DNA of 64,000 nt from an uncultured Gammaproteobacteria bacterium (GTDB taxonomy: Bacteria > Patescibacteriota > Patescibacteriia > Magasanikbacterales > UBA922). The stretch spans positions 300,215 to 364,214 of the forward strand of contig CAYFPM010000001.1 in the NCBI GenBank assembly GCA_964345045.1, in the 5' to 3' direction. Positions 7,607 through 59,905 of this stretch are shown piece after piece. The translations under genes and the position numbers were made by a program. Under the pieces are notes generated by a model that was given only the letters and a program-made list of their open reading frames with translations, made no database searches and was not told the DNA's origin. How positions within the stretch are numbered: position 1 is the first letter of the stretch; each line of letters opens with the position of its first letter.

Positions 7607-8500
7607 GATGATGTGGACGAGGAGAGGACGCCGGCAACCTAGTGGTAATACCGGCGTCCTCTCTCGCACAACCTCTAGCAGGCAATGCCCCCATAGCCTG
7701 CGAGGATGATGATCCTCCTAGTTTTTCGCGGTGTGGGAACCGAGTGTCATTGCGGCCAATCAACAACACTCGGCTCCCAATCACCCAATCCGCTGTCTTC
7801 TTTTCACACCAGAAGGAGTCTTGGCGTTACTTTTTGAAGACCTTTTCTCCTTTTCTTCCTGCTAGAGAAAGGAGTTCCGGGATTGCTCGCCGAGCACGCA
7901 TGTTTTTTCCCGGGCGGAACGGTTTTAAACCGACAGCCTCGGCACGGCAGGAGTAGAACTCTCTGCCGTGCCGGGCTGCCTGTCGAGGTCGATTAGATTC
8001 CTCTCTGTTTTGCTCGAAGGTGAGGAAGCTAACATCTAGAATTTTCTCCTAGATACAGGTATGAGTCGCGGTAACCTGCCGACCGTGTGCAGTGTGTCCG
8101 TATACTGTCCAAGATCCTCCCACCCTTTGTATACAAACGACGTCGTGATCTTCCAGAGGGGAGAGGAAGATCCTGACTTGTCGCAGTTTTGCGGGTGGTG
8201 AATCAAGGTTAGTTGCGAAAACCAGCCGAGGTCGCCGGGGGGGACGACGCCAGCTGTCACACTGCTTGATTTTTAAGATTGAAAGATCGAGAAACCTATG
8301 GCTCCGGCAGACGTGTGACTGCCTGGTGAAGTTCATTGTGTTCGCCACAACGATCTGCCGGAGCCCGAGGCCCGCTCTTTTTGGGGCTACCAGGGAGGAG
8401 GTAGCCATGGCGTAGTGTAACCGGGTCGGGTTGCACCACTAGAGGTTACGCTTTGATCTTATCCCTGGGGAAGGTCTAAGACAGCCAAGTTTTTGGGGAC
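7607..8500. other. ~0.9 kb high-GC non-coding block (island A) with multiple strong hairpins; unassigned structured RNA or degraded foreign DNA
   Basis: GC ~55-60% against a ~35% background. The only ORFs are Arg/Cys-rich spurious frames. Hairpins include gagaggacgccgg..ccggcgtcctctc, ggcacggcag..ctgccgtgcc and ggctacc..ggtagcc. Confidence 0.4.
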
Positions 8501-8753: not shown

Positions 8754-10850
8754 ATGAGTAAATTTAAAATAAAATCTAAATATAAACCGGCAGGAGATCA
8801 ACCCGAGGCAATTAAGGGGTTAGTTTCTGGTATAAAAAATAAAGAAGAGAAGCAAACCCTGCTTGGGGTGACAGGGTCTGGTAAGACCTTCACAGTGGCC
8901 AATGTCATAGAAAAAGTGCAAAAGCCTACTCTAGTAATTGCTCACAACAAAACTCTGGCAGCCCAGCTGTGCAACGAATTCCGTGAATTTTTCCCAGACA
9001 ATGCAGTAGAATATTTTGTAAGTTACTACGACTACTACCAACCAGAAGCTTACATGCCTGGTAGTGACACCTATATAGAGAAAGAAGCTCAGATAAATGA
9101 AGAAATAGACAGATTGCGTCATGCTTGTACGCAAGCCCTTTTGTCTCGCAAAGATGTAATTGTGGTAGCTTCGGTTTCTTGCATCTACGGACTTGGTTCC
9201 CCCAAAGAATACGAAAAAATAGTTTTGCATTTGCGAAAAGGGGATAAGCTAGATCGTCGGGGCATGATGGAGCAGCTTATTGAAATGCAGTTTGAGCGTA
9301 CTAATGGAGATTTGAAACGCGGAAGTTTCCGTATGCGTGGACAGACTTTTGAAATCATGCCGGTTAACGAAGAAAAGATTTATCGGTTTGAAGTTTCAAA
9401 CTATATAGATAGTATTGAAATGATTGATCCTGTAACTAGAAAAATTTTGAAAGAACAAGAAGATGTTTGGTTCTTTCCAGCCAAACACTATGTAGCTAGT
9501 CCAGAAGCGAGAGAGCGAGCCTATACCAGTATCAAAACAGAATTAGAAGAGCGACTAGGATTTTTTAAGAAAAAAGGTAAAGTACTGGAATACGAAAGGT
9601 TAAAAAGAAGAGTTAATTATGATTTGGAAATGATTCAAAATCTTGGTTATTGTAATGGTATAGAAAATTATTCACGTCACTTTGACGGTAGGGTAGAGGG
9701 GGAACCGGCCTTTACATTGCTCGATTATTTCCGCGAAGCCGATAAAGATTTTCTTACAGTGATAGATGAATCGCATGTAACTGTACCACAGGTAAGAGCT
9801 ATGTATGCAGGCGACAGAGCTAGAAAGGATACCTTGGTAGAGCATGGCTTTCGTCTTCCATCTGCCAGAGACAATAGGCCACTCAAGTTTGAAGAGTTTG
9901 AAGAAAGAGTAAAGCAGACTATATATGTATCGGCTACTCCTGGTGAGTATGAAAATAAAGAATCTAGCCAAGTAGTAGAGCAGATTGTACGTCCGACTGG
10001 TTTGGTAGATCCAGAGATAATTGTGCGGCCGGTGACCCCCTCAGCCTCGGCTGCGGCCTCGGCAGCTCCCCCTAAGAGGGGGAGCGATCGTTCGGCTTCG
10101 TCCACGTCTTTATCTCAAATCGAGGATGTGATTCTTCGGATTGAAGATAGAATTGGAAAAGGGGAGCGGGCGTTGGTTACTACCCTGACCAAGAAAATGG
10201 CTGAGGACTTGGACGAATATTTGCGAGAAAAGAAAATTAAAGTTAAATACTTGCATAGTGATATTAAAACTTTGGAAAGAGTAGAAATAATTACGGCTCT
10301 TCGCAAGGGTGATATAGATGTGATTGTTGGAGTAAACTTGCTTCGTGAAGGACTTGATATGCCAGAAGTTTCGCTTGTTGCTATTCTCGATGCTGATAAA
10401 GAAGGATTTTTGCGTAGTGAAACTAGCTTGATCCAGACCATTGGTAGAGCCGCTAGAAATGTAAATGGCCAAGTGGTACTATATGCCGACCAGATGACAG
10501 GCTCGATTGAGCGAGCTATAGAAGAAACCACTCGCCGTCGCGAGATACAGCTTGCTTACAACAAAAAGCATGGTATTACCCCAAAGACTATTGAAAAAGA
10601 AATTAAAAATTTGCTCGAAGAATTTGGAATTGACGTTGAAAAAGAAAAGAATAAAAAAACCAGAAAGCAAAAAAATGCCAAGAGAACTACTTTGGAATTG
10701 GATTTACTCGGGGATGCTAGATCGATTAAAGAGATTATTAAGGACAAAGAACAAAAGATGAAAGAAGCTGCCCAGGGCCTAGAATTTGAATTGGCAGCAA
10801 TTCTGCGTGATGAGATAAGGGAATTAAAAGCCAGAGAAAAAGTGAAATAA
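8754..10850 (+). CDS. uvrB: excinuclease ABC subunit B (UvrB), carrying an in-frame GC-rich insertion
   Basis: Helicase motifs (GVTGSGKTFT), UvrB interaction domain and C-terminal UVR motif; extra VTPSASAAASAAPPKRGSDRSASSTSLS segment. Confidence 0.95.
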   Translation: MSKFKIKSKYKPAGDQPEAIKGLVSGIKNKEEKQTLLGVTGSGKTFTVANVIEKVQKPTLVIAHNKTLAAQLCNEFREFFPDNAVEYFVSYYDYYQPEAYMPGSDTYIEKEAQINEEIDRLRHACTQALLSRKDVIVVASVSCIYGLGSPKEYEKIVLHLRKGDKLDRRGMMEQLIEMQFERTNGDLKRGSFRMRGQTFEIMPVNEEKIYRFEVSNYIDSIEMIDPVTRKILKEQEDVWFFPAKHYVASPEARERAYTSIKTELEERLGFFKKKGKVLEYERLKRRVNYDLEMIQNLGYCNGIENYSRHFDGRVEGEPAFTLLDYFREADKDFLTVIDESHVTVPQVRAMYAGDRARKDTLVEHGFRLPSARDNRPLKFEEFEERVKQTIYVSATPGEYENKESSQVVEQIVRPTGLVDPEIIVRPVTPSASAAASAAPPKRGSDRSASSTSLSQIEDVILRIEDRIGKGERALVTTLTKKMAEDLDEYLREKKIKVKYLHSDIKTLERVEIITALRKGDIDVIVGVNLLREGLDMPEVSLVAILDADKEGFLRSETSLIQTIGRAARNVNGQVVLYADQMTGSIERAIEETTRRREIQLAYNKKHGITPKTIEKEIKNLLEEFGIDVEKEKNKKTRKQKNAKRTTLELDLLGDARSIKEIIKDKEQKMKEAAQGLEFELAAILRDEIRELKAREKVK
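10035..10110. repeat. GC-rich palindromic element (CTCCCCCTAAGAGGGGGAG core) inserted in-frame in uvrB
   Basis: ~75 nt at ~70% GC inside an AT-rich gene. It replaces the short canonical linker after PEIxVRP. It shares modules with elements at 18868, 12118, 35065 and 59876. Confidence 0.7.
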
Positions 10851-10889
10851 AATAAGCAGAGTAAGCAGAATAAGTACTAAGCAGAATAA
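10851..10889. repeat. AAGCAGA(A/G)TAAG direct-repeat motif (family also at 30830 and 31206)
   Basis: aataagcagagtaagcagaataagtactaagcagaataa. Confidence 0.5.
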
Positions 10890-10920
10890 AAAAATGACTT
10901 GTCTAGCAAGTCATTTTTTA
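10888..10920. terminator. bidirectional rho-independent terminator between convergent uvrB and the 10930 ORF
   Basis: aaaaaaatgacttgtctagcaagtcatttttta. Confidence 0.6.
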
Positions 10921-10929
10921 TTGATAATT

Positions 10930-11469
10930 TTATTTAACTTCTACACTTACATTATTGCTATATTCGGTACAAGTATCTTTTTCATTATTTTTGGTCAAGC
11001 ACATACGAAAGTGCCAAGTGCCGGTGGGTGTATCTTCCCAGATAGTTTCAGATTGTAAATGATTTTTTCTAATCCAGTAATTTTTTTCCGGATTATGAAC
11101 AGGGTTTTCTTCGTCGTCTCTAATTATTATAAATCTATTGCTTTCGTCCAATCCGCTTGGAGCTTGCCAAGATAGTTTTACTTTTCCAGAACCCATAGCT
11201 TCGGCGGTTAGTACTAGTTTATCACTAGTCATAACTTCTTTTTTTTCGCTGGAGTCTTCGTGTTTTTTTGTTTCTTCCATTTTTTTATTCTCTTCCATCA
11301 CTAATGCTTGTCCTTTGCCTTCTTTTTTTTCTTCCATTACTATTTCACTATTTACTTCTTGGGCATTTTCTTGAGCTACATAATTTTTTTCTGCATTGTT
11401 TTGTCTCCACAAGAAAATTAGAATTAGAATAGTGACTATACCCAGAAACCAAGTTGTTTTTTTGCTCAT
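10930..11469 (-). CDS. hypothetical secreted/membrane-anchored protein with FN3-like C-terminal domain
   Basis: N-terminal TM/signal, Glu/Lys-rich linker, KVKLSWQAP beta-sandwich-like region. Confidence 0.45.
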   Translation of the reverse strand: MSKKTTWFLGIVTILILIFLWRQNNAEKNYVAQENAQEVNSEIVMEEKKEGKGQALVMEENKKMEETKKHEDSSEKKEVMTSDKLVLTAEAMGSGKVKLSWQAPSGLDESNRFIIIRDDEENPVHNPEKNYWIRKNHLQSETIWEDTPTGTWHFRMCLTKNNEKDTCTEYSNNVSVEVK

Positions 11470-11678
11470 ATATAATTAATTAGTATATTATTTACCTTAT
11501 TATAAAACAGGTTCCCCTACGGTGCAAGATATGTTTTGGGATTGAAAAAAAAGTCAAAATAAGGTAAACTGTCTATTAGTAGAGATGCCCTTTTTTATTA
11601 TACTAGATATTATCCCGATTTGGTCGGGGATTTTGTATTTTACAAAGGCTAAGGTTTTGAATAATAAAAATTTCAATT

Positions 11679-14327
11679 ATGAAAGATAAAATAACAATCA
11701 AAGGCGCGCGTGAGCATAATCTAAAAAATATTGATCTAGAATTACCTAGGAATAAAATGATTGTGTTCACTGGTCTATCTGGTTCGGGCAAATCGAGCCT
11801 GGCTTTTGATACCATATTTGCCGAGGGGCAACGTAGATATGTAGAAAGCTTGTCGGCCTATGCCAGGCAATTCCTAGGTGGTATGCAGAAGCCAGATGTA
11901 GATGAGATAGAAGGGCTTTCACCAGCTATTTCGATTGATCAGAAGGCTCATAGTGCCAATCCTCGCTCGACCGTAGCGACTATCACCGAGATCTACGATT
12001 ATTTGCGGGTGCTCTATGCTAGAGTCGGGGAGCCGTACTGTCCCGTAGATGGTACCAAGATAGAGAAGATGACTGTAGATGAGATGAATGAGAAGATTTT
12101 GAAGGGATTAAAGAATACTGCCAAACCCTCACCCGCTCGGCCGAAGGCCGAGTCGACCTCTCCCAGAGGGAGAGGTAAAGCTTCAACTTCGACTAAAGTA
12201 TCTAATGAAGTTTTGATTCTCTCGCCAATAGTTCGTGGTAGGAAAGGGGAGTACTACCAGATGCTTTATGATATGTATAATTCTGGTTTTCTAGAAGTGA
12301 GAGTTGATGGCAAAATCAAGAGTTTGCGCAAGCGGATTACTCTTACTAAGAACAAAAAGCACACTATAGAAGTAGTGGTAGACAAATTTCCACTAACAGA
12401 ATTTGAATTTTCTGGCGACAAAGCTGCCAAGCAGCGTCTTGCCGAGGCAGTAGAACAGGCTGTAGATCTATCCAATGGTCTTTGTGTGGTTATATACCCT
12501 GATGGTACCGAGACAGTCTATTCTACAGAATATTCTTGCCCCAAAGATGGTTTTAGCTTTCCAGAAATTGAGCCCAGGCTCTTTAGTTTCAATAGCCCTT
12601 ATGGGCAGTGTGGTTATTGTATGGGGATTGGAACCAAGGAACTCTTTAGTGAAGAATTGTGTCCAAAATGTGAAGGAAAGAGACTCAATGAAAATGCTTT
12701 GTCTGTAAAAGTGAACAAGAAAAATATTTATGAGCTTACCTCAATGGGGATTGGAGATGCCAAGCAATTTGTAGCAGATTTGGAAGAAACCATGAGTGAA
12801 AAAGATCTAGAAATTTCTGGAGCTGTTTTTCGCGAAGTCACGGGTCGTCTTCAATTCATGCTAGACGTAGGGCTAGACTACCTTACTCTAGATCGCAAAG
12901 CTGGCACTCTCTCTGGTGGAGAAGCTCAGCGTATCCGTCTGGCTTCGCAAGTTGGGACCAAACTGGTGGGAGCACTTTATGTGCTCGACGAACCAACCAT
13001 TGGCCTGCACCAGCGCGATAATGATCAGCTTGTTTCAACTCTACGCAATTTGTGTGATGTGGGTAATACTATTATTGTAGTTGAGCATGATGAAGATACT
13101 ATTATTACCAGTGATTGGTTGGTCGACATTGGCCCTGGGGCGGGTAAGCATGGTGGAGACGTGGTTTATTCTGGTCCACTGGAAAAGATTGTGAATTTGA
13201 AATCAAAGGCCAAGAATAATACTGGTTGTAAAGAATATGGTAGTGCCGATAAATCACTGACAGGTAAATACCTGCGCGGTGAGAAAAAGATAGCTGTGCC
13301 AGAGAAGAGGAGAAAGGTAGATAGCTCGACTCCCAAAATTAAGATAAAAGGGGCCAAAGAACATAACTTGAAAAATATTAATGTGGAAATTCCATTGCGT
13401 CGTTTGGTTTGCCTTACTGGTGTTTCTGGATCTGGTAAGTCCACGCTCATGCACGACATTCTATATCGCACAGTAGCCAATAGACTCAACCATGTAAAGA
13501 AAAAAACCGGTGAGCATAAGTCTATTACCAATACCGAATATATCGATAAGATAATTAGAATTGACCAAAGCCCGATTGGTCGCACCCCGCGTAGTAATCC
13601 AGCTACTTATACCAAAGCCTATGACCATATAAGAGAGATCTTTGCCTCTACACCAGAAGCCAGAATCCGTGGTTACAAATCTGGCCGCTTTAGTTTCAAT
13701 ACGCCCAATGGTCGGTGTGAAAATTGTGAAGGTCGGGGATTCCTAGAAATAGAGATGCACTTTTTGCCAAGTGTAGAGATTGTGTGTGATGTGTGCAAGG
13801 GACAAAGATTTGATCACGAAACTTTGCAAGTGCATTACAAAGGCAAAAATATTGCCGAAGTTCTCAATATGACCATCGAAGATGCTGAAGAATTCTTTCG
13901 AGATATTCCGGCAATTTATGATAAATTAAAAGTGCTTAACCAAGTTGGTCTTGACTATTTAACACTTGGTCAGTCGGCCAAGACTCTGTCTGGTGGAGAA
14001 GCGCAGCGTATCAAACTAAGTAAAGAACTCTCCAAAAGAAATACCACCAAGACCCTGTACCTGCTAGACGAACCAACAACTGGGCTGCATTATGATGATG
14101 TACGAAAACTGGTCGATGTGTTACAACGTTTAACTTCTCAGGGTAATACAGTGATGGTGATTGAACACAACTTAGATGTAATCAAATGTGCTGATTGGCT
14201 TATAGATCTAGGCCCAGAAGGTGGTAAAAATGGAGGGCAAGTAGTGGCTGTAGGGACACCAGAGGAGATTGCTCGCAAATCTACCACCAGTTTTACGGGT
14301 AAATATTTGAAGCGAGTTTTGAAATAA
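11679..14327 (+). CDS. uvrA: excinuclease ABC subunit A (UvrA), carrying an in-frame GC-rich insertion
   Basis: Two ABC ATPase modules (GLSGSGKSSL, GVSGSGKSTL), zinc-finger cysteines, LSGGE signatures; extra AKPSPARPKAESTSPRGRGKASTSTKVSNEV. Confidence 0.95.
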   Translation: MKDKITIKGAREHNLKNIDLELPRNKMIVFTGLSGSGKSSLAFDTIFAEGQRRYVESLSAYARQFLGGMQKPDVDEIEGLSPAISIDQKAHSANPRSTVATITEIYDYLRVLYARVGEPYCPVDGTKIEKMTVDEMNEKILKGLKNTAKPSPARPKAESTSPRGRGKASTSTKVSNEVLILSPIVRGRKGEYYQMLYDMYNSGFLEVRVDGKIKSLRKRITLTKNKKHTIEVVVDKFPLTEFEFSGDKAAKQRLAEAVEQAVDLSNGLCVVIYPDGTETVYSTEYSCPKDGFSFPEIEPRLFSFNSPYGQCGYCMGIGTKELFSEELCPKCEGKRLNENALSVKVNKKNIYELTSMGIGDAKQFVADLEETMSEKDLEISGAVFREVTGRLQFMLDVGLDYLTLDRKAGTLSGGEAQRIRLASQVGTKLVGALYVLDEPTIGLHQRDNDQLVSTLRNLCDVGNTIIVVEHDEDTIITSDWLVDIGPGAGKHGGDVVYSGPLEKIVNLKSKAKNNTGCKEYGSADKSLTGKYLRGEKKIAVPEKRRKVDSSTPKIKIKGAKEHNLKNINVEIPLRRLVCLTGVSGSGKSTLMHDILYRTVANRLNHVKKKTGEHKSITNTEYIDKIIRIDQSPIGRTPRSNPATYTKAYDHIREIFASTPEARIRGYKSGRFSFNTPNGRCENCEGRGFLEIEMHFLPSVEIVCDVCKGQRFDHETLQVHYKGKNIAEVLNMTIEDAEEFFRDIPAIYDKLKVLNQVGLDYLTLGQSAKTLSGGEAQRIKLSKELSKRNTTKTLYLLDEPTTGLHYDDVRKLVDVLQRLTSQGNTVMVIEHNLDVIKCADWLIDLGPEGGKNGGQVVAVGTPEEIARKSTTSFTGKYLKRVLK
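12118..12195. repeat. GC-rich palindromic element (CCTCTCCCAGAGGGAGAGG core) inserted in-frame in uvrA
   Basis: aaaccctcacccg...gtcgacctctcccagagggagaggt; near-identical to the right half of the uvrC element. Confidence 0.7.
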
Positions 14328-14364
14328 GTTTCAAGGTACTAATTGACAAAAACTAAAATACTAA

Positions 14365-14394
14365 TCCTGTATTTGCAAAGATACAGGGTTTTTT
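14365..14394 (+). terminator. rho-independent terminator of uvrA
   Basis: cctgtatttgcaaagatacagggtttttt. Confidence 0.6.
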
Positions 14395-14397
14395 ATG

Positions 14398-14426
14398 TTG
14401 ACAAAAAGAAAAAAGCATGATATACA
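14398..14426 (+). promoter_or_regulatory. sigma70-like promoter (TTGACA-17-TATACA) driving a leaderless high-GC small ORF
   Basis: ttgaca at 14398, 17-nt spacer, tataca at 14421; the ATG follows 7 nt downstream. Confidence 0.4.
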
Positions 14427-14432
14427 TTATTT

Positions 14433-14681
14433 ATGTTTTCCGTGAGCAAACTGATGATTCCCTCTCAAATCACCACCGACATCGCCGTCTTCATGATCTG
14501 GGGGTTCTTGATCGCCTCCATGTTGATCTCGATCATGACCTGGTGGAAGTTCTTCCCCTGGCCAACCTCGGTCTGGGCGCGCCGCATCTCGATCGGTGTC
14601 GGGCCGGTCATGTGGGGTGCCTTCTTCATCTTGGCAGCTGTGGTGTACCAGGGTCCGGTCGATCAGTTCGGTGGGCCGTAG
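14433..14681 (+). CDS. small 2-TM membrane protein (82 aa) in a high-GC cassette (island B); possible PLD-N/cardiolipin-synthase-N-like fold
   Basis: GC3-rich codons (atc/gcc/ttc/ctg) and two hydrophobic helices, GPVMWGAFFILAAVVYQG. The other long frames here are Arg/His-rich and spurious. Confidence 0.4.
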   Translation: MFSVSKLMIPSQITTDIAVFMIWGFLIASMLISIMTWWKFFPWPTSVWARRISIGVGPVMWGAFFILAAVVYQGPVDQFGGP

Positions 14682-14786
14682 AAGGTGCCCCTGCGGACGA
14701 CTTAGATGCGGGGAGACAGTGTGCGTGCACCTGTCAACCCGTGTCACCCTTCCTACAAACACTTTGGATAAGTGTTTTTTATATTG

Positions 14787-16001
14787 TCAAAAATTAGCAA
14801 TAAGGTTTTTAAAATCTTGTCTCTTTCTTATCAACCTAATATTTTCACCATCAATTAAAACCTCGGCGGGTAATGGTCTAAATTGATAATTGGTAGCCAT
14901 ACTCATACCATAGGCTCCGGCATTTTTTATTGCCAATATATCTCCTTCGCGGACTTCGTTTAGCATACGGTCTCTAGCAAAATAATCGGCACATTCACAA
15001 ATATTGCCAACCACATCATACTCTCTATACATGCCATCTGGATTACTCAAATTTACAATTGGATGGTAGGAATCATACATAGCCGGGCGGACCAGGTGGT
15101 TCATACCAGTATCTGTACCTACCACAGTATGGCGACTAATCGTTTCTTTGATTGTGTTTACTTTTGTTAACAAAGTTCCGGATTCGGCTACAATATATCT
15201 ACCAGGCTCAAATCTTAGTTGAATATTTCGATTATATTCAGATTCAAATCTATCCATTCTTTTTTTAATTTCTTTACCCAAAGTTTTCAAATCCAATCGA
15301 TTTTCTTCTGGTTTGTAAGGTACTCCAAAACCACCACCAACATCTACAAATTCTAGATTTGGAAATTGTTTGGCAATGTCTAGTATTACATCGAGTGCCA
15401 AAATCGGTTCTCGTAGTCGTAGCCAGCCAGAACCAATATGTTGGTGTACACCAACTATTTGTAGATTGTGTTTTGTAGCAATAATTTTTACTTTTTCTAC
15501 ATCTTGAAAAAAAATACCAAATTTGGAATTTGGTCCACCAGTTATATTTGATTCATGCGAAGCAATACCAATGTTTGGATTGAAACGAATAGAGATTCTA
15601 GAATTTGGGTAGTTTTTTCCATATTTTTCCAGTCTAGACAAAGAACCAATGTTTTGCAAAACTCCCAAGTTTTGGACTTCTTCCATCTCGGCATTGGTCA
15701 TGTTGTTGCCAGTAAACATAATATTTTCTGGTTTGGCGCCACAGTGCAGACCTAGTTTTACTTCTTCTACAGAAACAGCATCTATCCCACAGCCAAGTTT
15801 TATTATTTCTTTAACTATTGTTGGATTATAATTAGCTTTTATAGCGTACAAAAATTTGGTATTTTGGTGCAGACCCAGATAGTTTTGTAATTTTGCAATT
15901 CGGTTTTGGATTATTTGTAAATTGTAAACATAAAGCGGACTGCCAAAATGCTCGCAAAGTTCTGTGGGACTATAATTGTTAAATATTTCATTTTGGTTCA
16001 T
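14787..16001 (-). CDS. lysA: diaminopimelate decarboxylase (LysA)
   Basis: PLP-dependent Orn/DAP decarboxylase fold with YAIKAN PLP-lysine motif and GGG loop; native low GC. Confidence 0.9.
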   Translation of the reverse strand: MNQNEIFNNYSPTELCEHFGSPLYVYNLQIIQNRIAKLQNYLGLHQNTKFLYAIKANYNPTIVKEIIKLGCGIDAVSVEEVKLGLHCGAKPENIMFTGNNMTNAEMEEVQNLGVLQNIGSLSRLEKYGKNYPNSRISIRFNPNIGIASHESNITGGPNSKFGIFFQDVEKVKIIATKHNLQIVGVHQHIGSGWLRLREPILALDVILDIAKQFPNLEFVDVGGGFGVPYKPEENRLDLKTLGKEIKKRMDRFESEYNRNIQLRFEPGRYIVAESGTLLTKVNTIKETISRHTVVGTDTGMNHLVRPAMYDSYHPIVNLSNPDGMYREYDVVGNICECADYFARDRMLNEVREGDILAIKNAGAYGMSMATNYQFRPLPAEVLIDGENIRLIRKRQDFKNLIANF

Positions 16002-16063
16002 ATTTTTGTTTAAGAATAATGGATTTGATAATGAATGGGGGAGCCTGCGTTCTCCTTGTATAT

Positions 16064-16321
16064 TTACGCAGGCTGTGATGAGGGGGTGATGACGACTCGG
16101 CCACGACCAGTGACTGGGATCCAGCTGCCGGTGATAAGGTGCTGTTCTTTGCCAAATTCGGTCAAAGTTCCTTCTTGGATTTGATAGCTATTGCCTTTGT
16201 CCGTGCAAGCCGATTTTGGGACTTGGGCAGTAAAAGGTGGAACCCCTTCTCCGCCAGCATCGCCTGGTGTGAGATGAAGTTTGATTTTGTCTCCATCTAT
16301 TTCTACCTTGGCAATAGTCAT
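16064..16321 (-). CDS. hypothetical 85-aa high-GC ORF between aspartokinase and lysA
   Basis: MTIAKVEIDGDKIKLHLTPGDAGGEG...; sits in the aspartokinase-lysA gap; not ACT-like; could be spurious in high-GC DNA. Confidence 0.25.
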   Translation of the reverse strand: MTIAKVEIDGDKIKLHLTPGDAGGEGVPPFTAQVPKSACTDKGNSYQIQEGTLTEFGKEQHLITGSWIPVTGRGRVVITPSSQPA

Positions 16322-16335
16322 TTCTAGTTTGGGCG

Positions 16336-17157
16336 TCATGCTGCGATCCTCTCGGCCGTAGTCGAGATTACCGTACCAGCACGAGTACCGGTCATGGTGT
16401 TGCACACCTCGATCGGTACCAGGCCAGCGGCCAGCTCGACAGCTCGGGGGTGGACCACGCAGGCGTTGAGGGCAAGGAAGTTTGCCGGAGTGATCTCGGT
16501 GAACAATGTGGCATCGGCGTGTTGGTTGGGGTCTTTGTTGTAGACTCCGTCTACGTCGGTCCAGTTGCAGTGAGTAGCCGAGAGGGCCACGGCGAGTAGG
16601 CTTGCCGTTACATCCGAACCCCCACGCCCGAGCGTGATGACCCGGCCGTCTGCCGTAGCACCGTAGAAACCAGGCACGATCACCTGGTGACCATTGCATC
16701 GCTCGCGGATAAGTTGGTAGGTGGCTTCGAGGTCGATGTTGCCTTCGTCGTCCACACGGATCACATTGGCTGCGTCGACAAATTGGGAACCAGTAAGCTC
16801 GGCCATGATCTGAGCCATGAGCCACTCGCCGCGCGAGGCAGCCAAGTCGTAGCTAGACTTGATCTCAAAGCGAACCTGATTGAGAAGCTTCTCGATGTCG
16901 ATCGATAAGCCGAGCTCGGACACAATGCTCTCGAACCGAGCGACGATCGCGGCCCAGTTCGCCTCGAAGTCTTCGCCACGCTGGCAGGCAATGAAGCGGT
17001 CAGTGAGCTTGGTAGCATCGGCTGGCAACTTGCCCGGAGCCGAGCAAACGACTGCCTGGCAGCCGTGGTTGCTTTGGATGATCTCGAAAACCCGCCGGAC
17101 GTTTTGGGCACATGAAAGCGACGTGCCACCAAACTTGCAGATAGTTTTTTCGGTCAT
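16336..17157 (-). CDS. aspartate kinase catalytic (amino-acid kinase) domain, no ACT regulatory domains; high GC
   Basis: KFGGTSL and LGRGGSD aspartokinase motifs. Ends at the catalytic/ACT boundary (273 aa). Strong SD aggagggtg upstream. GC ~60%. Confidence 0.7.
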   Translation of the reverse strand: MTEKTICKFGGTSLSCAQNVRRVFEIIQSNHGCQAVVCSAPGKLPADATKLTDRFIACQRGEDFEANWAAIVARFESIVSELGLSIDIEKLLNQVRFEIKSSYDLAASRGEWLMAQIMAELTGSQFVDAANVIRVDDEGNIDLEATYQLIRERCNGHQVIVPGFYGATADGRVITLGRGGSDVTASLLAVALSATHCNWTDVDGVYNKDPNQHADATLFTEITPANFLALNACVVHPRAVELAAGLVPIEVCNTMTGTRAGTVISTTAERIAA

Positions 17158-17501
17158 TTCACCCTCCTAGGTGATAAAAAGAGCCTTAGCTCGTTTGAAC
17201 TAGTGAGCTCCAATTGCTTGGAACCCGGTTTGTTCAACCGATTTTTGGAATACGAAAAAACCGCCCAGGAGGCGGTTTCTAGTAATTTTTGGGTACTAAG
17301 AAATTCACCTCGCTGGGGCGGTCATCTTCTTGGTCTTTTTTGTAGCAAGAATGAATTTCATAATATTTTGAGCTTACTAGGATTTTTCGGATTTGTAAAA
17401 TTTTTTGTGGATAAGAGGGGAATTTAGGTCTCTTTGACGATTGTGTTATTATATCTACAATAAAAAATAAAGGTTTTTTAAGGGTAATAAAAGGAGGGAA
17501 C

Positions 17502-18083
17502 ATGCCAGAAAAATATAAAAATAAATATCGGATACCATCAGCCAGATATAAAGGTTGGAATTATGGATGGGATGGATATTATTTTGTGACAATTTGTACA
17601 AAAAATAGGGAACATTTTTTTGGAAATATTGTGGAAGGGAAAATGATTTTGTCGGAAATTGGGGAAATGGTCGAAAAATATTGGTATGAAATTCCAAAAC
17701 ATTTTTCATTTGTACGGTTGGATGCGTTTGTGGTAATGCCGAACCATTTTCATGCCATTGTGATAATTGATAAAAATAATGATAAACCGGTAGAGACGCA
17801 TTGCAATGCGTCTCTACAACAACGGGATGTATATAAAAAATCAAATGATCATCGTGAATACCAAAATAAATTCGGCCCGCAAAAACACAATTTGGCGTCC
17901 ATAATTCGTGGTTTCAAAGGGACGGTAACCAAACAGGTCAACGAAAGATTTGGTGATGAATATTTCGCCTGGCAACCCCGATTCCACGAACACATTATCC
18001 GCAACGAAATAGCGTTGGAAAGAATTCGTAAATATATAAAATTAAATCCTTGGAAATGGCAAGATGATTGTTTTTTCAAATAA
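17502..18083 (+). CDS. REP-associated tyrosine transposase (RAYT) / IS200-like Y1 HUH transposase
   Basis: YYFVTICTKNRE, HuH motif NHFHAIV, WQPRFHEHIIRNE...IRKYIKLNPWKW tyrosine region. Confidence 0.75.
   Translation: MPEKYKNKYRIPSARYKGWNYGWDGYYFVTICTKNREHFFGNIVEGKMILSEIGEMVEKYWYEIPKHFSFVRLDAFVVMPNHFHAIVIIDKNNDKPVETHCNASLQQRDVYKKSNDHREYQNKFGPQKHNLASIIRGFKGTVTKQVNERFGDEYFAWQPRFHEHIIRNEIALERIRKYIKLNPWKWQDDCFFK
17790..17817. repeat. 28-nt perfect palindrome inside the RAYT ORF
   Basis: GTAGAGACGCATTGCAATGCGTCTCTAC, encoding VETHCNASLQ between the HuH and Tyr regions. Confidence 0.6.
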
Positions 18084-18085
18084 TT

Positions 18086-19477
18086 ATGTCTACAAAAATT
18101 CAAAAAAAATTAAAAAATCTTCCAGATACACCGGGTATCTATCTTTTTTATAATTTCAAAAAAGAATTAGTCTATGTAGGCAAAGCCACTTCTCTAAAAA
18201 GTAGAGTTAGAAGTTACTTCAACAGTGGTAACAAAACTAGCCGACCAATAGAAGCACTGATTCACGAAGTGGCAGATATAAAATGGAAAGAAGCAGACTC
18301 TGTACTAGAAGCCATAATAATGGAAGCCAACCATATAAAAAAATATCAACCCAAATATAATGTAGACGGTAAAGATGATAAAAGTTGGAATTATATTGTA
18401 ATAACCAAAGACGAGTATCCACGTGTAGAGACTGTGCGACAACATGAGCTTGAAAATGTACGAAATACTAAAGATACGAAATTACGAAAATTTAACGAAG
18501 TGTTTGGGCCATATCCTGGGTTGAATACCAAAGAGACTTTGAAATTGCTAAGAAAGATTTTTACTTATTCAACCTGTCAAAGCAAGAAAGCAAAAAAACA
18601 AGAAAGCAAAAAAGTTAAGCCATGTTTTTATTATCAACTAGGGCAGTGTTTGGGGGTGTGTACTGGCGAGATAAGTTCTACAGAATACAAAGCAAAAGTA
18701 ATTAGGCCTTTGAAAACTTTTCTTGGTGGTAGAAAAAAGCAACTTATAAAAAGTTTGGAAGTAAAAATGAGAAAGGAGTCTAAGCTAGAGAATTTCGAAG
18801 AAGCAGCCAGACTTCGCAACCAGATATCGGCTTTGCAAAGGATTCATGATGTGGCGCTTTTGAATAAATCGTTTGTAGATACCCCCTCAGGCCTGCGGCC
18901 AGCTCCCCCTAAACCCTCACCCGGACGCCCTGCGGTCGTTTCGACCTCTCCCAGAGGGAGAGGTGAAAACTCTGATTCTAGAAAAGAAGTTATTAGAATA
19001 GAAGGCTACGATATTTCTAATTTTGGTGCTACTGGCAAAGTGGGGTCGATGGTGGTCTTTGAATTTGGCGAAGCCAAGAAAAAAGATTACAGAAAATTTA
19101 AAATTAAATCTGTAGTAGGGCAGAGTGATGTGGATTGTCTCGAGGAAGTTCTTGAACGCAGACTGCGTCACGCAAAAAGCAAAGAGCAAGGAACAAAGAA
19201 CAAGAAAGATTTTTGGCCTTTGCCGCAAGTATTTTTGATTGATGGTGGTAAGCCGCAGGTTAACCGGGCAAAGAAAGTTTTGAAAGATAATAAAGTGGAT
19301 GTGCCGGTGGTGGGGATTGCCAAGGGGCCAGATAGAAAAAAAAATGAATTTATATTGGGGAGTAAGAATAAAGACTTTGTTAAATGGGTTTATTCTAATC
19401 AAAAATTGTTAATCGCGGTGCGCGACGAGGCTCATCGGTTTGCAATTGCTTATCAGCGAAAATTACGAAAATTATAA
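18086..19477 (+). CDS. uvrC: excinuclease ABC subunit C (UvrC), short form without C-terminal (HhH)2, carrying an in-frame GC-rich insertion
   Basis: GIY-YIG (PGIYLFYN...VYVGKA), UvrBC-binding region, RNaseH-like endonuclease (DEAHRFAI); extra DTPSGLRPAPPKPSPGRPAVVSTSPRGRGENSDSRK. Confidence 0.9.
   Translation: MSTKIQKKLKNLPDTPGIYLFYNFKKELVYVGKATSLKSRVRSYFNSGNKTSRPIEALIHEVADIKWKEADSVLEAIIMEANHIKKYQPKYNVDGKDDKSWNYIVITKDEYPRVETVRQHELENVRNTKDTKLRKFNEVFGPYPGLNTKETLKLLRKIFTYSTCQSKKAKKQESKKVKPCFYYQLGQCLGVCTGEISSTEYKAKVIRPLKTFLGGRKKQLIKSLEVKMRKESKLENFEEAARLRNQISALQRIHDVALLNKSFVDTPSGLRPAPPKPSPGRPAVVSTSPRGRGENSDSRKEVIRIEGYDISNFGATGKVGSMVVFEFGEAKKKDYRKFKIKSVVGQSDVDCLEEVLERRLRHAKSKEQGTKNKKDFWPLPQVFLIDGGKPQVNRAKKVLKDNKVDVPVVGIAKGPDRKKNEFILGSKNKDFVKWVYSNQKLLIAVRDEAHRFAIAYQRKLRKL
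18868..18957. repeat. GC-rich composite palindromic element inserted in-frame in uvrC
   Basis: ccccctcaggcctgcggccagctccccctaaaccctcacccgg...cgacctctcccagagggagaggtg. Left half matches the uvrB element and right half the uvrA element. Confidence 0.7.
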
Positions 19478-19608: not shown

Positions 19609-19680
19609 TGGGGCGGGCCGGAATCGAACCGGAGACTCTCTGACGGACGTCAGGCGCTTTCCCAATTAAGCTACCGCTCC
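19609..19680 (-). tRNA. tRNA-like gene with atypical anticodon arm (possibly Gly-UCC-like); CCA not encoded
   Basis: Acceptor GGAGCGG/CCGCCCC (one A-C mismatch), D arm GCTT-AATTGGGA-AAGC, T arm with TTCGATT loop. The anticodon region CTGACGTCCGTCAG folds as a tight palindrome and gives a 6-nt loop under the standard template. Confidence 0.45.
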
Positions 19681-19931
19681 TAGTTGTGTTTGTAGAACCT
19701 TGTCTACTTTTTTACGATTCTATCGTTTCCTACCCAGCCAATCACCTCGACGAGTAGGAGGCAGCCACGTAATCCTAATCGGAGGGAGTTTATGACCACA
19801 GCTTCGGTGGCTTTGTAGGCCAATGTGCCTTTTTGGAGGCGACATCCGGATTTCTCTTGGTTTTGCATACTAAAATCATTATCACAAAAAAAAGTAAATG
19901 TCAATAGCAAAAATGTTTTTTGTTTAGTATC

Positions 19932-19960
19932 TTGACAATTTAATAAAATTGTGTTAATAA
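19932..19960 (+). promoter_or_regulatory. candidate promoter (TTGACA-17-TAATAA) for the high-GC small ORF
   Basis: ttgaca at 19932; weak -10. Confidence 0.3.
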
Positions 19961-19998
19961 AAATATATTCTCGTTTAGAGATGGAAGGAGCTAATAGA

Positions 19999-20208
19999 AT
20001 GACTAACGTTACGTACGAGACCTGCCCGGGGTGTGGTGGTACCAGGTCAAGGGGTCACTACGGTGGCACCAGGTGTCCCCGCTGTTCCAGGAATGCTCGC
20101 GAGTCCAGGCGTCGCACCGCCGCCGCGATCGGTGACGCAATCATCGAGGGGCCAATCGCGGTTGTCAAGGGCGTGAGGAGCGTCTTCAGGTTCTTAAACC
20201 AGCTCTGA
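19999..20208 (+). CDS. small Arg-rich zinc-ribbon protein (CPGCGG...CPRC), high GC (island D)
   Basis: SD ggaaggag 8 nt upstream of ATG; CxxC-x14-CxxC; GC ~62%; its own terminators follow. Confidence 0.45.
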   Translation: MTNVTYETCPGCGGTRSRGHYGGTRCPRCSRNARESRRRTAAAIGDAIIEGPIAVVKGVRSVFRFLNQL

Positions 20209-20247
20209 CCGCCAGGTCCAGGTTCTGCGAGAGCAACCGAGAATGCG

Positions 20248-20312
20248 GGAGCACGATTAGTCGTGCTCCTGCCTCAAACTTCAATTTGTTACAGCCTGTA
20301 GGCTGTTTTTTT
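20248..20312 (+). terminator. two consecutive hairpins (ggagcacga..tcgtgctcc; acagcctgtaggctgt + T7) ending island D
   Basis: The second hairpin core cagcctgtaggct is identical to the one at 7590. Confidence 0.5.
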
Positions 20313-21020: not shown

Positions 21021-21962
21021 ATGAGACATGTACCAGTATTGTTAAACGAAGTATTAGAAGCACTAAATTTGGAATCAGGTAAAAATATTGTCGATTGCAC
21101 CTTAGGAGACGCTGGTCACTCGGAAAAAATATTAGAAAAGATTAGTCCAGATGGAAAATTGCTTGGAATTGATGCTGATCCAGAATCAATTTTGCGTGCC
21201 AAGAAATATTTGCATCAGTACGAAGGTAGAACTGTTTTTGTAAGAGATAATTTTGTAGGAATCAAAAGTATTGTAGAAGAAGAAAAATTTGCACCGGTTC
21301 ATGGAGTCTTACTAGATCTAGGTTGGTCTACTCCTCAGTTCGAAGAAAGAAGAAGAGGTTTTAGTTTCAAAAATTTGCAAGAACCGCTTGATATGCGCTA
21401 CGACAAGAGACGAGCTTGTAAGCACAATGTAGGAGGGGAGTATTACGAAGCTTGTACTGCGGCCAGTATCTTGAATACCGAATCAGAAAAAGAATTGGCC
21501 AGAATTTTTAAAGAATACGGAGAAGAAAAGTTTGCCAAAGAAATTGCCAAAGCAGTTGTAGAAAAAAGAAAAGAATTGGAATTTGAACTAGTAGGAGATT
21601 TGGTGAATACAGTTTTAGAAGTTTATAGAAAAAAATTAAAAACAGATAAAGAAATTCCTTGGATAGGCGGGCTGCACCCAGCTACCAAAGTGTTCCAAGC
21701 GTTGAGAATAAGTGTAAATGAAGAACTAACAGCTGTAAAAGAAACTTTGCCGCAAGCAGTAGAAGTACTGGAACCAGGTGGTAGATTGGCCATAATATCG
21801 TTTCATTCGCTAGAAGACAGAATAGTCAAACATTATTTCAAAAGTCAGGATGGAAAAAGTCTAAAAATAATTACCAAAAAGCCAATTACCTGTGGAGAAG
21901 AAGAATACAAAAATAATCCACCTTCACGTTCTGCCAAATTGCGAGTTGTCGAAAGGATATAG
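21021..21962 (+). CDS. rsmH: 16S rRNA (cytosine1402-N4)-methyltransferase RsmH
   Basis: HVPVLLNEVLEAL, SAM-binding DCTLGDAGHS, FHSLEDRIVK. Confidence 0.9.
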   Translation: MRHVPVLLNEVLEALNLESGKNIVDCTLGDAGHSEKILEKISPDGKLLGIDADPESILRAKKYLHQYEGRTVFVRDNFVGIKSIVEEEKFAPVHGVLLDLGWSTPQFEERRRGFSFKNLQEPLDMRYDKRRACKHNVGGEYYEACTAASILNTESEKELARIFKEYGEEKFAKEIAKAVVEKRKELEFELVGDLVNTVLEVYRKKLKTDKEIPWIGGLHPATKVFQALRISVNEELTAVKETLPQAVEVLEPGGRLAIISFHSLEDRIVKHYFKSQDGKSLKIITKKPITCGEEEYKNNPPSRSAKLRVVERI

Positions 21963-21995
21963 GAAGTAGGCAACAGGCAATAGTTATTAGAAAAA
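21963..21995. repeat. TAGGCAACAGGCAATAG motif plus imperfect hairpin after rsmH (family also at 37888 and 44733)
   Basis: gaagtaggcaacaggcaatagtt...ctattacct. Confidence 0.5.
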
Positions 21996-32945: not shown

Positions 32946-33064
32946 ATGTGCGAATTACGAATTTTGCGAATATACGAATAAAGTATTTATATTTATTATT
33001 CGTTCTTTTGTTTTACTAAATTAAAGTATTCGTGAATTCGTACTATTCGTAATTCGCACATCAT
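32946..33064. repeat. ~40-bp imperfect inverted repeat with TACGAAT/ATTCGT iteron-like units, upstream of dnaB
   Basis: atgtgcgaattacgaattttgcgaatatacgaataaagtat ... agtattcgtgaattcgtactattcgtaattcgcacat. Confidence 0.5.
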
Positions 33065-35016: not shown

Positions 35017-35064
35017 ATTTAATTTTTTACTTTTGTAATTCAAAGGTTTACGATTACCGAGTAA

Positions 35065-35095
35065 CCCCCTCTGTCTCCCCCTTGGTAAGGGGGAG
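35065..35095. repeat. intergenic GC-rich palindromic element (CCCCCTCTGTCTCCCCCTTGGTAAGGGGGAG)
   Basis: Sits between convergent genes; ~87% identical to the element at 59876. Confidence 0.7.
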
Positions 35096-37872: not shown

Positions 37873-37887
37873 ATAGGAGATAGGGAG

Positions 37888-37960
37888 TAGGCAACAGGCA
37901 ATAGTCTTAAATATCAAAAACTATTGCCTATTTTCTACTGACTCCTGCCTATAAAAATGA
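37888..37960. repeat. TAGGCAACAGGCAATAG-family long imperfect hairpin
   Basis: gggagtaggcaacaggcaatagtcttaaatatcaaaaactattgcctattttctactgactcctgcctat. Confidence 0.5.
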
Positions 37961-46791: not shown

Positions 46792-46911
46792 CGTTCATTT
46801 TTTGGCGGATGAGATCTTTCGAGATCCATCCGCCCCGTTCACATGTTCAGCATTGCAAATGCTGTGCAGGTGTTGGGTAACGCTCTTTCAAATTTTGGAA
46901 AGGAAAACAAG

Positions 46912-59825: not shown

Positions 59826-59875
59826 AGTTTAATAAAAAAAGACCTAAACGGTCTTTTTTGTTTTTAGTATTTTTA

Positions 59876-59905
59876 CCCCCTCTACCTCCCCCTTGTCAGG
59901 GGGAG
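59876..59905. repeat. intergenic GC-rich palindromic element (CCCCCTCTACCTCCCCCTTGTCAGGGGGAG)
   Basis: Between convergent genes, next to a separate AT-type terminator hairpin (aagacctaaacggtctt). Confidence 0.7.

Follow-up and report, generated by a model that had tools for sequence, protein, structure and literature searches.

In-frame copies of a putative triplex-forming repeat (TM/PIT) in the uvrA, uvrB and uvrC genes of a Candidatus Magasanikbacteria genome

The uvr region and its GC-rich blocks

The window considered here, that is, the whole 64-kb stretch of DNA that was analysed, comes from the CPR genome of an ultra-small, uncultured member of Candidatus Magasanikbacteria and carries on the forward strand the three NER genes uvrB (8754..10850; Pfam domains UvrB, UvrB_inter, Helicase_C and UVR), uvrA (11679..14327; UvrA_inter and ABC_tran, alignable to UvrA of 2r6f and 9gxk) and uvrC (18068..19477; GIY-YIG, UVR and UvrC_RNaseH_dom). 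In the public gene call, uvrC starts at 18086; the C-terminal HhH2 domain is missing from its product and from the Magasanikbacteria homologues alike. Each of these genes contains a GC-rich block, and the positions, sequences and peptides given for the three blocks in the original prediction were confirmed, together with the claim that they are in frame: all three ORFs remain open through the blocks, and the block lengths are each divisible by three, with no in-frame stops. The contrast in GC content, put at 70% versus 35%, is real but smaller, namely 68%, 60% and 64% in the uvrB, uvrA and uvrC blocks versus 40%, 42% and 36% in the remainder of the respective genes. The blocks are not assembly artefacts, being identical across independent assemblies: those in uvrB and uvrA are exact in both ERZ930070 and ERZ930068; the contig of ERZ930068 stops short of uvrC, and the uvrC block was compared with ERZ930070, where it is exact.

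The insert in uvrB (10035..10112; 78 nt, residues 428-453, TPSASAAASAAPPKRGSDRSASSTSL), which interrupts an otherwise end-to-end alignment with solved UvrB structures, contains a triplex motif of type A (10035-10085), the 3' 27 nt of the insert lying outside the motif. The triplex-motif scanner, which looks for a hairpin with one pyrimidine and one purine arm and for a third strand that mirrors one of these arms, identified here the third strand CCCCCTC (10036..10042), a mirror repeat of the pyrimidine arm of the hairpin; the hairpin itself (10065..10085; GCTCCCCCT-AAG-AGGGGGAGC) is predicted by DNA folding to have a 9-bp stem and a 3-nt loop. The CCCCCTC block recurs at 35065 and 59876, at 18882 in uvrC, and in the Magasanikbacteria uvrA locus L005. 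The insert in uvrA (12118..12180; about 63 nt, AKPSPARPKAESTSPRGRGKA) consists nearly entirely of a type-B long-linker triplex motif (12126-12176), in which the third strand CCCTCACCC (12126..12134), to which GGGTGAGGG of the published TMECO consensus is exactly complementary, is followed by a linker hairpin (12136..12152; CTCGGCC-GAA-GGCCGAG) and by the main hairpin (12156..12176; ACCTCTCCC-AGA-GGGAGAGGT), both from DNA folding; the entire block folds with z = -4.8. The insert in uvrC is made of two parts. The first (18881..18912), recognized by alignment with the uvrB copy and by block identity, is a truncated type-A motif, in which ACCCCCTC as the third strand is followed by the linker GGCC-TGC-GGCC and by GCTCCCCCT as the pyrimidine arm, the purine arm being absent. 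The second (18914..18964), recognized by its likeness to the uvrA copy, is a type-B long-linker motif with CCCTCACCC, a decayed linker hairpin that folds weakly (-5.5 kcal/mol) and the main hairpin ACCTCTCCC-AGA-GGGAGAGGT at 18944-18964.

All the genic blocks that had been listed are real, but the list missed two intergenic relatives in the window, namely the short-linker canonical type-A motifs at 35064..35094 (ACCCCCTC-TGT-CTCCCCCT-TGGTA-AGGGGGAG) and 59875..59905 (ACCCCCTC-TAC-CTCCCCCT-TGTC-AGGGGGAG), both on the forward strand and each flanked by convergent genes. The relatedness claimed for the blocks rests for uvrA and uvrC on a blastn match of 76 nt, ungapped and 75% identical (E 3e-11), and for uvrB and uvrC on three identical blocks of 7-8 nt, the gapped 41-nt match of this pair having by itself an E of 0.04. 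Chance as the origin of the likeness is excluded: the scanner detects 5 GC-rich triplex motifs in the window versus 0.03-0.13 in block shuffles, and the 19-mer cores have 0.00-0.02 expected occurrences in shuffled sequence. The cores were described as perfect palindromes; in fact, they are stems of 8-9 bp with 3-nt loops (AAG, AGA), and the reverse complements differ at 3 positions; a description as palindromes only overlooks what defines the motifs, the mirror-repeat (triplex) architecture.

Likeness to TM/PIT motifs and to other repeat systems

This architecture, present in all three uvr blocks and at both intergenic sites, is that of the triplex motif (TM; TMECO in E. coli) described by Holder et al. 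(NAR 2015, PMC4666352), also named the PIT motif (Hoyne/Maher 2000) and overlapping with the BoxC repeats of E. coli. Module B shares with it the actual blocks: the published consensus, CCCTCTCCC-loop-GGGAGAGGG-N3-4-GGGTGAGGG (or its complement), when read in reverse complement, is the motif of module B (PMC4666352), and the modules in uvrA and uvrC agree with it at 9/9 positions in CCCTCACCC and at 8/9 in CCTCTCCC/GGGAGAGG. Module A (CCCCCTC / CTCCCCCT) is another sequence type with the same three-block architecture, common in metagenomes. Like TMECO, the present motifs are multi-copy and over-represented, frequently form inverted pairs (loci L005, L322 and L326) and include, in the window, short-linker intergenic copies. 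There are differences as well. Whereas TMECO in E. coli is "always located intergenically" (PMC4666352), 3/5 of the window copies lie inside ORFs, in frame; the linker of the uvr copies is itself a hairpin and, with 21-25 nt (13-25 nt if other block delimitations are included), is longer than the 1-6-nt loop of the ITxF definition, within which the two intergenic copies fall with their 3-nt linkers; and the main stem of the uvr copies, closed by an A-T pair, has 8-9 bp. Linkers of this kind are found elsewhere too: about 35 sampled copies in other genomes have a 12-32-nt hairpin linker like that of the uvrA copy, with differing linker sequences, and long hairpin linkers account for about 20-30% of the sampled copies elsewhere.

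Judged by sequence, then, the three blocks are copies of a pan-bacterial G/C-rich intrastrand-triplex motif (TM/PIT, related to BoxC), and the genic copies represent a long-linker subtype with a second small hairpin as the linker; triplex formation is putative, and in E. coli itself the motif was not detected as a triplex in vivo (PMC4666352). The blocks do not constitute a private, novel family; the core is already published, and the 19-nt type-B core has matches in at least 120 genomes spread over many phyla, as well as in 72 viral contigs, with CCCTCACCC located 3-7 nt upstream of the core in most type-B matches.

The original prediction compared the blocks with Rickettsia palindromic elements (RPEs), short palindromic repeats that are found in frame in numerous unrelated housekeeping genes within a reduced AT-rich genome and add peptide segments at fold-compatible sites (PMC10969869). 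The comparison holds inasmuch as related, hairpin-forming repeats are inserted in frame, with the ORF kept, in unrelated genes and at linkers of a CPR genome, but the family is another, already known one. RPEs are about 100-150 bp long, restricted to Rickettsia and code for a conserved peptide in each family, whereas the present motifs, set apart from RPEs by description, are about 30-51 nt long (in inserts of 63-95 nt), GC-rich, built on mirror-repeat logic and distributed over many phyla, here in a Magasanikbacteria host. The in-frame gains by TM/PIT copies are therefore RPE-like behaviour of a different, known repeat family. With REP/REPIN repeats, the motifs have in common the short hairpins and the frequent inverted pairs, and a RAYT-like ORF (17502-18083) adjoins uvrC; they differ in having no conserved GTAG-type 5' tetranucleotide, the flanks of the ORF contain no motifs, and the search across about 320 motif loci yielded one RAYT match, which was not adjacent to a motif.

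Yeast mitochondria harbour GC clusters and "byp" elements, GC-rich palindromic mini-elements that invade the genes of AT-rich genomes; byps, which ribosomes skip, have no frame requirement. Inasmuch as the present blocks are also GC-rich hairpin inserts within protein-coding genes of an AT-rich, albeit not mitochondrial, genome, they bear a superficial likeness to byps, and one might envisage that they remain untranslated, owing either to ribosome skipping, as with byp or T4 gene 60, or to removal from the mRNA. This possibility appears hardly credible: the blocks are all stop-free, of lengths divisible by three, and the 20 genic copies found elsewhere (see below) are likewise in frame, whereas bypass elements typically carry stops and need no frame; bypass of this kind would call for an insert that breaks the frame or contains stops, with matched take-off and landing codons; and a search of the blocks against intron and ribozyme families gave no match.

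Gain of the copies at variable linkers

The uvrA block is missing in 8/8 relatives (76-81% identical), the uvrB block in 5/5, and the peptide of the uvrC insert in 119 other UvrC homologues; in none of the Uvr proteins compared do the blocks have a counterpart. The insertions are lineage-specific, as had been proposed, and the proposed location at linkers is supported by structures. In place of the uvrB insert, the solved UvrB 9gy7_E has one residue between "V(K/R)PV" and "GQIDDL"; residues 143-177 of UvrA stand in place of 6 residues of 2r6f, directly before the UvrB-binding domain; and the AlphaFold model of UvrC is disordered at the insert, with pLDDT below 50 only at residues 255-300, insert included. 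The linker of UvrC is hypervariable, with a length between about 6 and over 50 residues across 120 homologues, and the uvr insertion sites are linkers of variable length, in which unrelated AT-rich inserts occur too. The alignments show every copy to be a discrete gain, of about 50-95 nt, without a counterpart in relatives, and each is located at an inter-domain linker the length of which varies within the clade. Because neither a mobilising enzyme nor the target-site duplications and terminal inverted repeats of classical MITEs were found, the latter upon inspection of the filled and empty uvrA sites and of the other copies, we infer insertion by a mobile-element mechanism only from the comparison of filled versus empty sites.

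Alternatively, the blocks could have originated where they now stand, through replication slippage, gene conversion with GC-rich uvr homologues as donors or convergent selection favouring a structured or Pro/Gly-rich linker. Hypervariable linkers do gather sequences of many kinds, and inspection of the core shows no stop in any of the six frames, so that the hairpins would be easily tolerated. Against this speak the blocks of 7-9 nt that are identical to those in the intergenic copies of the window, in the L005 copy and in hundreds of copies in unrelated phyla, the lack of any counterpart among Uvr proteins, and the gain of about 63 nt in uvrA, which almost coincides with the boundaries of the 51-nt motif. 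The sequence identity to dispersed copies largely refutes an origin in place, which we consider very improbable.

In other CPR lineages as well, this repeat lies in frame within numerous unrelated housekeeping genes. In an unbiased metagenome sample of type-A motifs from contigs under 50% GC, 20/50 motifs are located well within ORFs that span at least 200 codons, all 20 in frame and without stops. The host ORFs identified by Pfam include MetRS, PolA, PheRS-beta, the CCA-adding enzyme, KsgA, a TrxR-like protein and others, and the four host proteins for which a source is named all come from CPR lineages (Nomurabacteria, Falkowbacteria, Komeilibacteria and Patescibacteria group); further in-frame hosts, recognized by eye, are a DnaE-like ORF of Ignavibacteria, a DNA-methylase-like ORF of Methylococcales and an ORF resembling a phage portal protein. 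A repeat described as intergenic in E. coli is now found within housekeeping genes across CPR lineages.

We consider it quite probable that the uvr blocks are TM/PIT copies that spread by copying and have been kept in permissive linkers, without a repair-specific function. In the spreading unit, which would be propagated by a putative copy-and-insert process, the pyrimidine third strand (CCCTCACCC or CCCCCTC) is followed, after a linker, by a hairpin (CCTCTCCC-AGA-GGGAGAGG or CTCCCCCT-AAG-AGGGGGAG), and the 5' arm of the hairpin mirrors the third strand. In gene-dense, AT-rich CPR genomes, selection would spare only the intergenic copies and those that happen to fall in frame into permissive linkers; the surviving genic copies, for which translation is predicted, would add disordered loops rich in Pro, Ser, Gly and Arg to the Uvr proteins and hardly affect the function of these. 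As DNA, the copies would stay prone to hairpin or H-DNA formation and may raise local instability.

Placement in repair genes and a candidate partner in spread

The original prediction also saw a concentration in repair genes. This is not a property of the family, as there are no NER genes among the 18 in-frame host ORFs of the metagenome sample (10 assigned by Pfam, 8 by eye), and the hosts in other phyla resemble DnaE, a DNA methylase and a phage portal protein; within Magasanikbacteria, it is suggestive only. In the window, 3/3 genic copies are found in the NER genes (6.2 kb) and none in about 50 kb of other coding DNA, for which simple arithmetic gives P of about 1e-3 under uniform placement over coding DNA. 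Four further insertion events, independent and at other sites, are seen in other Magasanikbacteria uvr genes and none in the neighbouring genes, namely in uvrA of L005 (an inverted pair), in uvrA of L321, in the uvrC linker of L320/L321 and in uvrC of L322 (a pair). Furthermore, triplex and H-DNA structures are substrates of NER in other systems (PMC5027492, PMC2602775, PMC11667243). One could therefore envisage that uvrA, uvrB and uvrC acquire or keep such motifs preferentially, either because the non-B structure in the uvr genes is recognised by their own product UvrAB, yielding an expression feedback, or because an element that is an NER substrate gains from altered NER proteins. However, L320, L321 and L322 were chosen for their odd-looking UvrC linkers, which introduces an ascertainment bias; four Magasanikbacteria uvr loci chosen regardless of inserts contain no genic motif; and the linkers in question accept unrelated AT-rich inserts as well. 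The uvr bias within Magasanikbacteria, not replicated in the loci so chosen, remains suggestive, and we deem an NER-specific relation unlikely. Permissive linkers can explain the copies in NER genes, though they may not do so fully; most likely, these copies reflect the permissive linkers of large multidomain proteins and perhaps local copying within the 9-kb uvr region.

As to the spread of the TM/PIT copies, a small gene for a DUF559 (Vsr-like PD-(D/E)XK) nuclease, often bracketed by motifs, would be a candidate partner. The motifs might be non-autonomous, MITE-like derivatives of a small selfish DUF559 element, or its preferred landing sites, with the uvr copies mobilised in trans; this tentative proposal, for which we see a minor though appreciable chance, would refine the main explanation rather than compete with it. 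Of about 312 loci selected for the motif, 10 were matched in a tblastn search with a DUF559 segment, and at 9 of these 10 a motif lies at most 60 nt from the ORF; the ORF is bracketed by inverted motifs in L238, L275 and L231 and flanked by motifs in L066, and the RAYT control showed no such association. On the other hand, the window contains no DUF559 gene, the gene is present at only about 3% of motif loci, the orientation of the motif relative to the ORF varies among the examples, and Holder et al. found the motif unlinked to mobile elements (PMC4666352). Combining both lines of thought, the motifs could be partners of a DUF559 element that favour NER genes in Magasanikbacteria since UvrABC recognises their non-B structure; we hold this to be improbable, but, if true, it would imply a repeat-versus-repair conflict or a feedback loop inside the repair genes themselves. 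The proximity of motif and nuclease gene is also seen in E. coli K-12, where ycjD, annotated as DUF559, has a degenerate motif at the gene end, with TMECO #9 located 168 nt downstream.

GC-rich insertions in uvrB, uvrA and uvrC

The three GC-rich blocks reside in uvrB (8754-10850; block at 10035-10112), uvrA (11679-14327; 12118-12180) and uvrC (18068-19477; 18881-18964). Pfam agrees with the original prediction on the identity of these host genes, the block positions and quoted sequences of that prediction were correct when checked directly, the blocks are in frame, and all three ORFs are open. The GC content of the blocks is 68% in uvrB, 60% in uvrA and 64% in uvrC, as compared to 40%, 42% and 36%, respectively, in the remainder of each gene and 38% in the whole window. 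The proposed modular relatedness was recovered by alignment: the uvrA and uvrC blocks are 75% identical over 76 nt without gaps (E 3e-11), and the uvrB and uvrC blocks have a gapped stretch in common. The "perfect palindromes" are actually stems of 8-9 bp with 3-nt loops. Two further assemblies from different samples (ERZ930070 and ERZ930068, PRJEB17505) contain exactly these uvrB and uvrA blocks, and ERZ930070 has the identical uvrC block as well, whereas the ERZ930068 contig stops short of uvrC; therefore, an assembly artefact, against which the original prediction had cautioned, is ruled out. When the three insert peptides were concatenated and searched against a database of 5.8 billion proteins, no match was obtained, probably owing to the handling of low-complexity sequence.

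The insertions are lineage-specific, and their sites are permissive. As judged from the UvrC homologues, the host genome belongs to Candidatus Magasanikbacteria (Patescibacteria/CPR), with the closest relative being only 66% identical. The uvrA block, missing in 8 of 8 relatives (76-81% identical), occupies residues 143-177 in place of 6 residues of 2r6f, directly before the UvrB-binding domain, and the gain of ~63 nt corresponds almost exactly to the 51-nt motif. The uvrB block is missing in all five relatives, one of which carries an unrelated AT-rich insert of 43 residues at the same site, and replaces a single residue of the solved UvrB, between "VKPV" and "GQIDDL". The UvrC insert peptide occurs in none of the 119 other homologues; it lies in the linker from "ALLNKSF" to "RIEGYD", the length of which varies from ~6 to more than 50 residues across homologues. 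In the AlphaFold2 model of UvrC (77 sequences; mean pLDDT 82.6), the sole segment with pLDDT below 50, residues 255-300, contains the whole insert and has no secondary structure. An ancestral linker was considered as the origin of the blocks and rejected, the relatives being without them; an intein or intron was rejected as well, and so was translational bypass, the inserts being in frame. These are discrete, datable gains of the motif in highly conserved genes, with filled and empty sites at base level, and they argue more clearly than any previous evidence for insertion of the motif as a unit.

Other repeat-like inserts are found in the Uvr linkers of other Magasanikbacteria (UvrC homologues P0002, P0004, P0026, P0039, P0041 and P0056; 5995-6085 and 10796-10931 of locus L003 from another genome), for example, AT-rich palindromes read as 'RNTKTTKLRKSDIRKSEL' or 'NSELRTKNSELR', and also 'DYRLQTTDYSQS'. 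They resemble intergenic repeats of the window, such as those at 21951-21984, 37872-37905 and 32946-33061, and the same permissive sites may be used by several repeat families. As for the proteins themselves, UvrA (11679-14327) is without ~95 residues that match positions 323-418 of 2r6f, where the 'insertion domain' is located, and UvrC (18068-19477) is without the C-terminal HhH2 domain, as are its Magasanikbacteria homologues (407-528 residues).

Identity of the blocks as a triplex motif

An abundant intergenic repeat, variously named TM, PIT and BoxC, has been known for some 25 years; to our knowledge, its origin and function are unexplained, and we know of no evidence of its mobility. At the sequence level, the blocks are a long-linker form of this repeat, namely, of the G/C-rich intrastrand triplex motif TM (TMECO in E. 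coli; earlier name PIT, overlapping BoxC) described by Holder et al. 2015 (PMC4666352), a paper reached by full-text search for the motif strings. According to that study, the motif occurs in more than 260 genomes, including 23 copies in E. coli K-12 that are "always located intergenically" and frequently form inverted pairs; the triplex forms in vitro as single-stranded DNA and was not detected in vivo; the motif is accompanied by local genome instability and showed no connection with mobile elements (PMC4666352).

The 19-nt hairpin core shared by uvrA and uvrC had at least 120 matches in a scan of one genome per GTDB species, those listed coming from Pseudomonas, Variovorax, Archangium, Dehalococcoidia, Planctomycetota, Acidobacteria, Gracilibacteria, Patescibacteria and others, and it was present in 72 viral contigs. 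The flanks of the core matches conserve an extended motif, CCCTCACCC-N3-7-CCCTCTCCC-AGA-GGGAGAGGG, and a subtype in which CCCTCACC and the core are separated by a small GC hairpin, variable in sequence, has the exact uvrA architecture; this hairpin-linker subtype appears to be new. Module A, represented by the uvrB block and the left part of the uvrC block, is built in the same way, with CCCCCTC mirroring CTCCCCC, and its constituent blocks are identical to those of both intergenic copies in the window and of a copy from a different genome (L005). In uvrC, a type-A unit truncated by the loss of its purine arm is followed by a complete type-B unit, the type of the uvrA block.

A scanner pattern of our own (third strand, linker, pyrimidine arm, loop, purine arm) detected five GC-rich motifs in the window versus 0.03-0.13 in block shuffles: the three uvr blocks, with linkers of up to 25 nt, and two intergenic copies of the canonical short-linker form at 35064-35094 and 59875-59905. 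No Rfam family covered the motif in the window or in ten motif loci. All five motifs (10035, 12126, 18881, 35064, 59875) have one orientation, with the C-rich strand on +, which may be due to the direction of replication or to chance (about 1 in 16); among the metagenome matches listed, genic copies are of mixed orientation relative to the host gene (8 same, 12 opposite).

In-frame copies in other genes and the relation to NER

A single metagenome scan with a gapped type-A pattern yielded at least 120 loci with at least 136 motifs; among the matches listed, 20 of the 50 motifs in loci with less than 50% GC lie deep within ORFs of at least 200 codons. Ten hosts were identified by Pfam, the host domain being frequently broken by the motif: MetRS, PolA, a squalene-cyclase-like protein, an NTP transferase, galactokinase, CCA-adding enzyme, PheRS-beta, a C39-like peptidase, KsgA and a thioredoxin-reductase-like protein; ArgRS, PBP1A, Fmt, TruB and Dus were added by eye. 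Exact-sequence look-up gave source names for four host proteins, namely, Candidatus Nomurabacteria, Falkowbacteria, Komeilibacteria and "Patescibacteria group". Many MAGs contain the motif-bearing PheT of Nomurabacteria in its full length, and its motif copy is, therefore, stably maintained. Outside CPR, in-frame copies were assigned by eye to Ignavibacteria DnaE, a Methylococcales DNA methylase and a viral portal protein. A literature search found no paper describing such in-frame behaviour of this motif, and its frequent residence in frame in CPR housekeeping genes appears to be new. Many housekeeping proteins in several CPR lineages would have acquired short, probably disordered loops from a repeat, in parallel to the Rickettsia palindromic elements (RPEs), which bears on annotation, on alignment-based phylogeny and on many unexplained insertions in CPR proteins. 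The RPEs show the same in-frame behaviour (PMC10969869), whereas the repeat family here is a different and already known one. The original reading is partly right, in that the blocks are palindromic in-frame insertions of an RPE-like kind in a CPR genome, but the family is the pan-bacterial TM/PIT motif and not specific to repair genes.

Indeed, concentration in repair genes fails as a property of the family: in the metagenome sample, which is unbiased in this respect, 0 of 18 hosts among the matches listed (by Pfam and by eye) are NER genes. All three genic copies in the 64-kb window do lie within 6.2 kb of uvr genes, for which simple arithmetic under uniform placement over coding DNA gives P of about 1e-3 before allowing for the choice of the window for this very feature. 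Independent insertions are also present in uvr genes of other Magasanikbacteria, specifically, in uvrA of L005 (an inverted pair) and L321, in the uvrC linker of L320 and L321, and in uvrC of L322 (a pair), with no motif in the neighbouring genes. However, L320, L321 and L322 were selected for their unusual UvrC linkers and hence carry an ascertainment bias; four Magasanikbacteria uvr loci chosen without regard to inserts, which span 85 kb (uvr genes, 20 kb; remaining coding DNA, 57 kb), contained no genic motifs, and the uvr insertion sites are demonstrably tolerant linkers. Triplex structures are known to be processed by NER (PMC5027492, PMC2602775, PMC11667243), so that a real bias would connect a non-B DNA repeat with the processing pathway for such structures; on balance, we regard a specific relation of the motif to NER genes as very doubtful.

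Candidate partner enzymes and other features of the window

Directly upstream of uvrC and overlapping its start is an ORF (17502-18083, +) resembling the REP-associated tyrosine transposase (RAYT), with an HUH motif (NHFHAIV) and a match to NF047646 (E 1.4e-19) under the curated cut-off. This ORF is lineage-specific, being absent from that position in relatives, and was rejected as the mobiliser of the motif: it is not conserved in place (L004), has no flanking motifs and shows no association in ~320 motif loci. Of the classical MITE features, neither TIR nor TSD was seen at motif copies.

A different enzyme was brought to attention by locus L066, where a motif-flanked DUF559 (Vsr-like nuclease) domain is embedded in a methylase ORF (L066:6469-7852). 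The tblastn survey that followed found DUF559 ORFs in 10 of ~312 motif-selected loci, with a motif at most 60 nt away in nine; inverted motifs are located on both sides of the ORF in L238 (700-1260), L275 (690-1257) and L231 (1440-1960). In E. coli K-12 (locus L319; NC_000913.3 1351040-1351840), a degenerate motif forms the end of the coding sequence of ycjD, annotated as DUF559, and TMECO #9 is found 168 nt downstream of it. A literature search found no published link between DUF559 and the motif, and the association, as judged from these neighbourhoods, appears to be new; the 64-kb window contains no DUF559 gene. A DUF559-encoding element is a candidate partner of the motif and one open to test, although we consider such a partnership less likely than not; alternatively, motif pairs may be homing sites of DUF559 genes. 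The mechanism of motif insertion, and any function, are at present what we infer. A second kind of small nuclease adjoins motifs in L326 (1945-2271), where an inverted triplex-motif pair abuts the 3' end of a stand-alone GIY-YIG nuclease ORF of 85 residues.

Other GC-rich patches of the window, at 7.6-8.5, 14.4-14.8, 16.1-17.1, 20.0-20.3 and 45-48.3 kb, were considered as relatives of the blocks and rejected, their sequences being unrelated. The interval between uvrA and uvrC (14417-17157) differs from that in relatives and encompasses genes of 57-65% GC, including an amino-acid kinase (60% GC), an Orn/DAP decarboxylase and unannotated GC-rich ORFs (14417-14797); the GC-rich genes and the difference from relatives suggest horizontally acquired DNA. 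A tRNA gene at 19609-19680 (-), scored by Rfam at 44 bits and missed by ARAGORN, adjoins an unusually GC-rich non-coding region (19700-19850); group I introns in tRNA genes have been reported for Patescibacteria (PMC13011429), and no intron family scored at this tRNA or in the adjoining region. Small ORFs of 57-62% GC are found in AT-rich surroundings at 19951-20276 (+) and 7607-8453, one of them encoding a Cys-rich, zinc-ribbon-like protein of 85 residues and the others having no family match. Finally, a segment of ~3.3 kb at 45029-48384, with ~60% GC and a sequence unrelated to the triplex motifs, contains three ORFs, two without a Pfam match and the third encoding an FGE-sulfatase-domain protein, and is probably foreign DNA in this genome of 38% GC.
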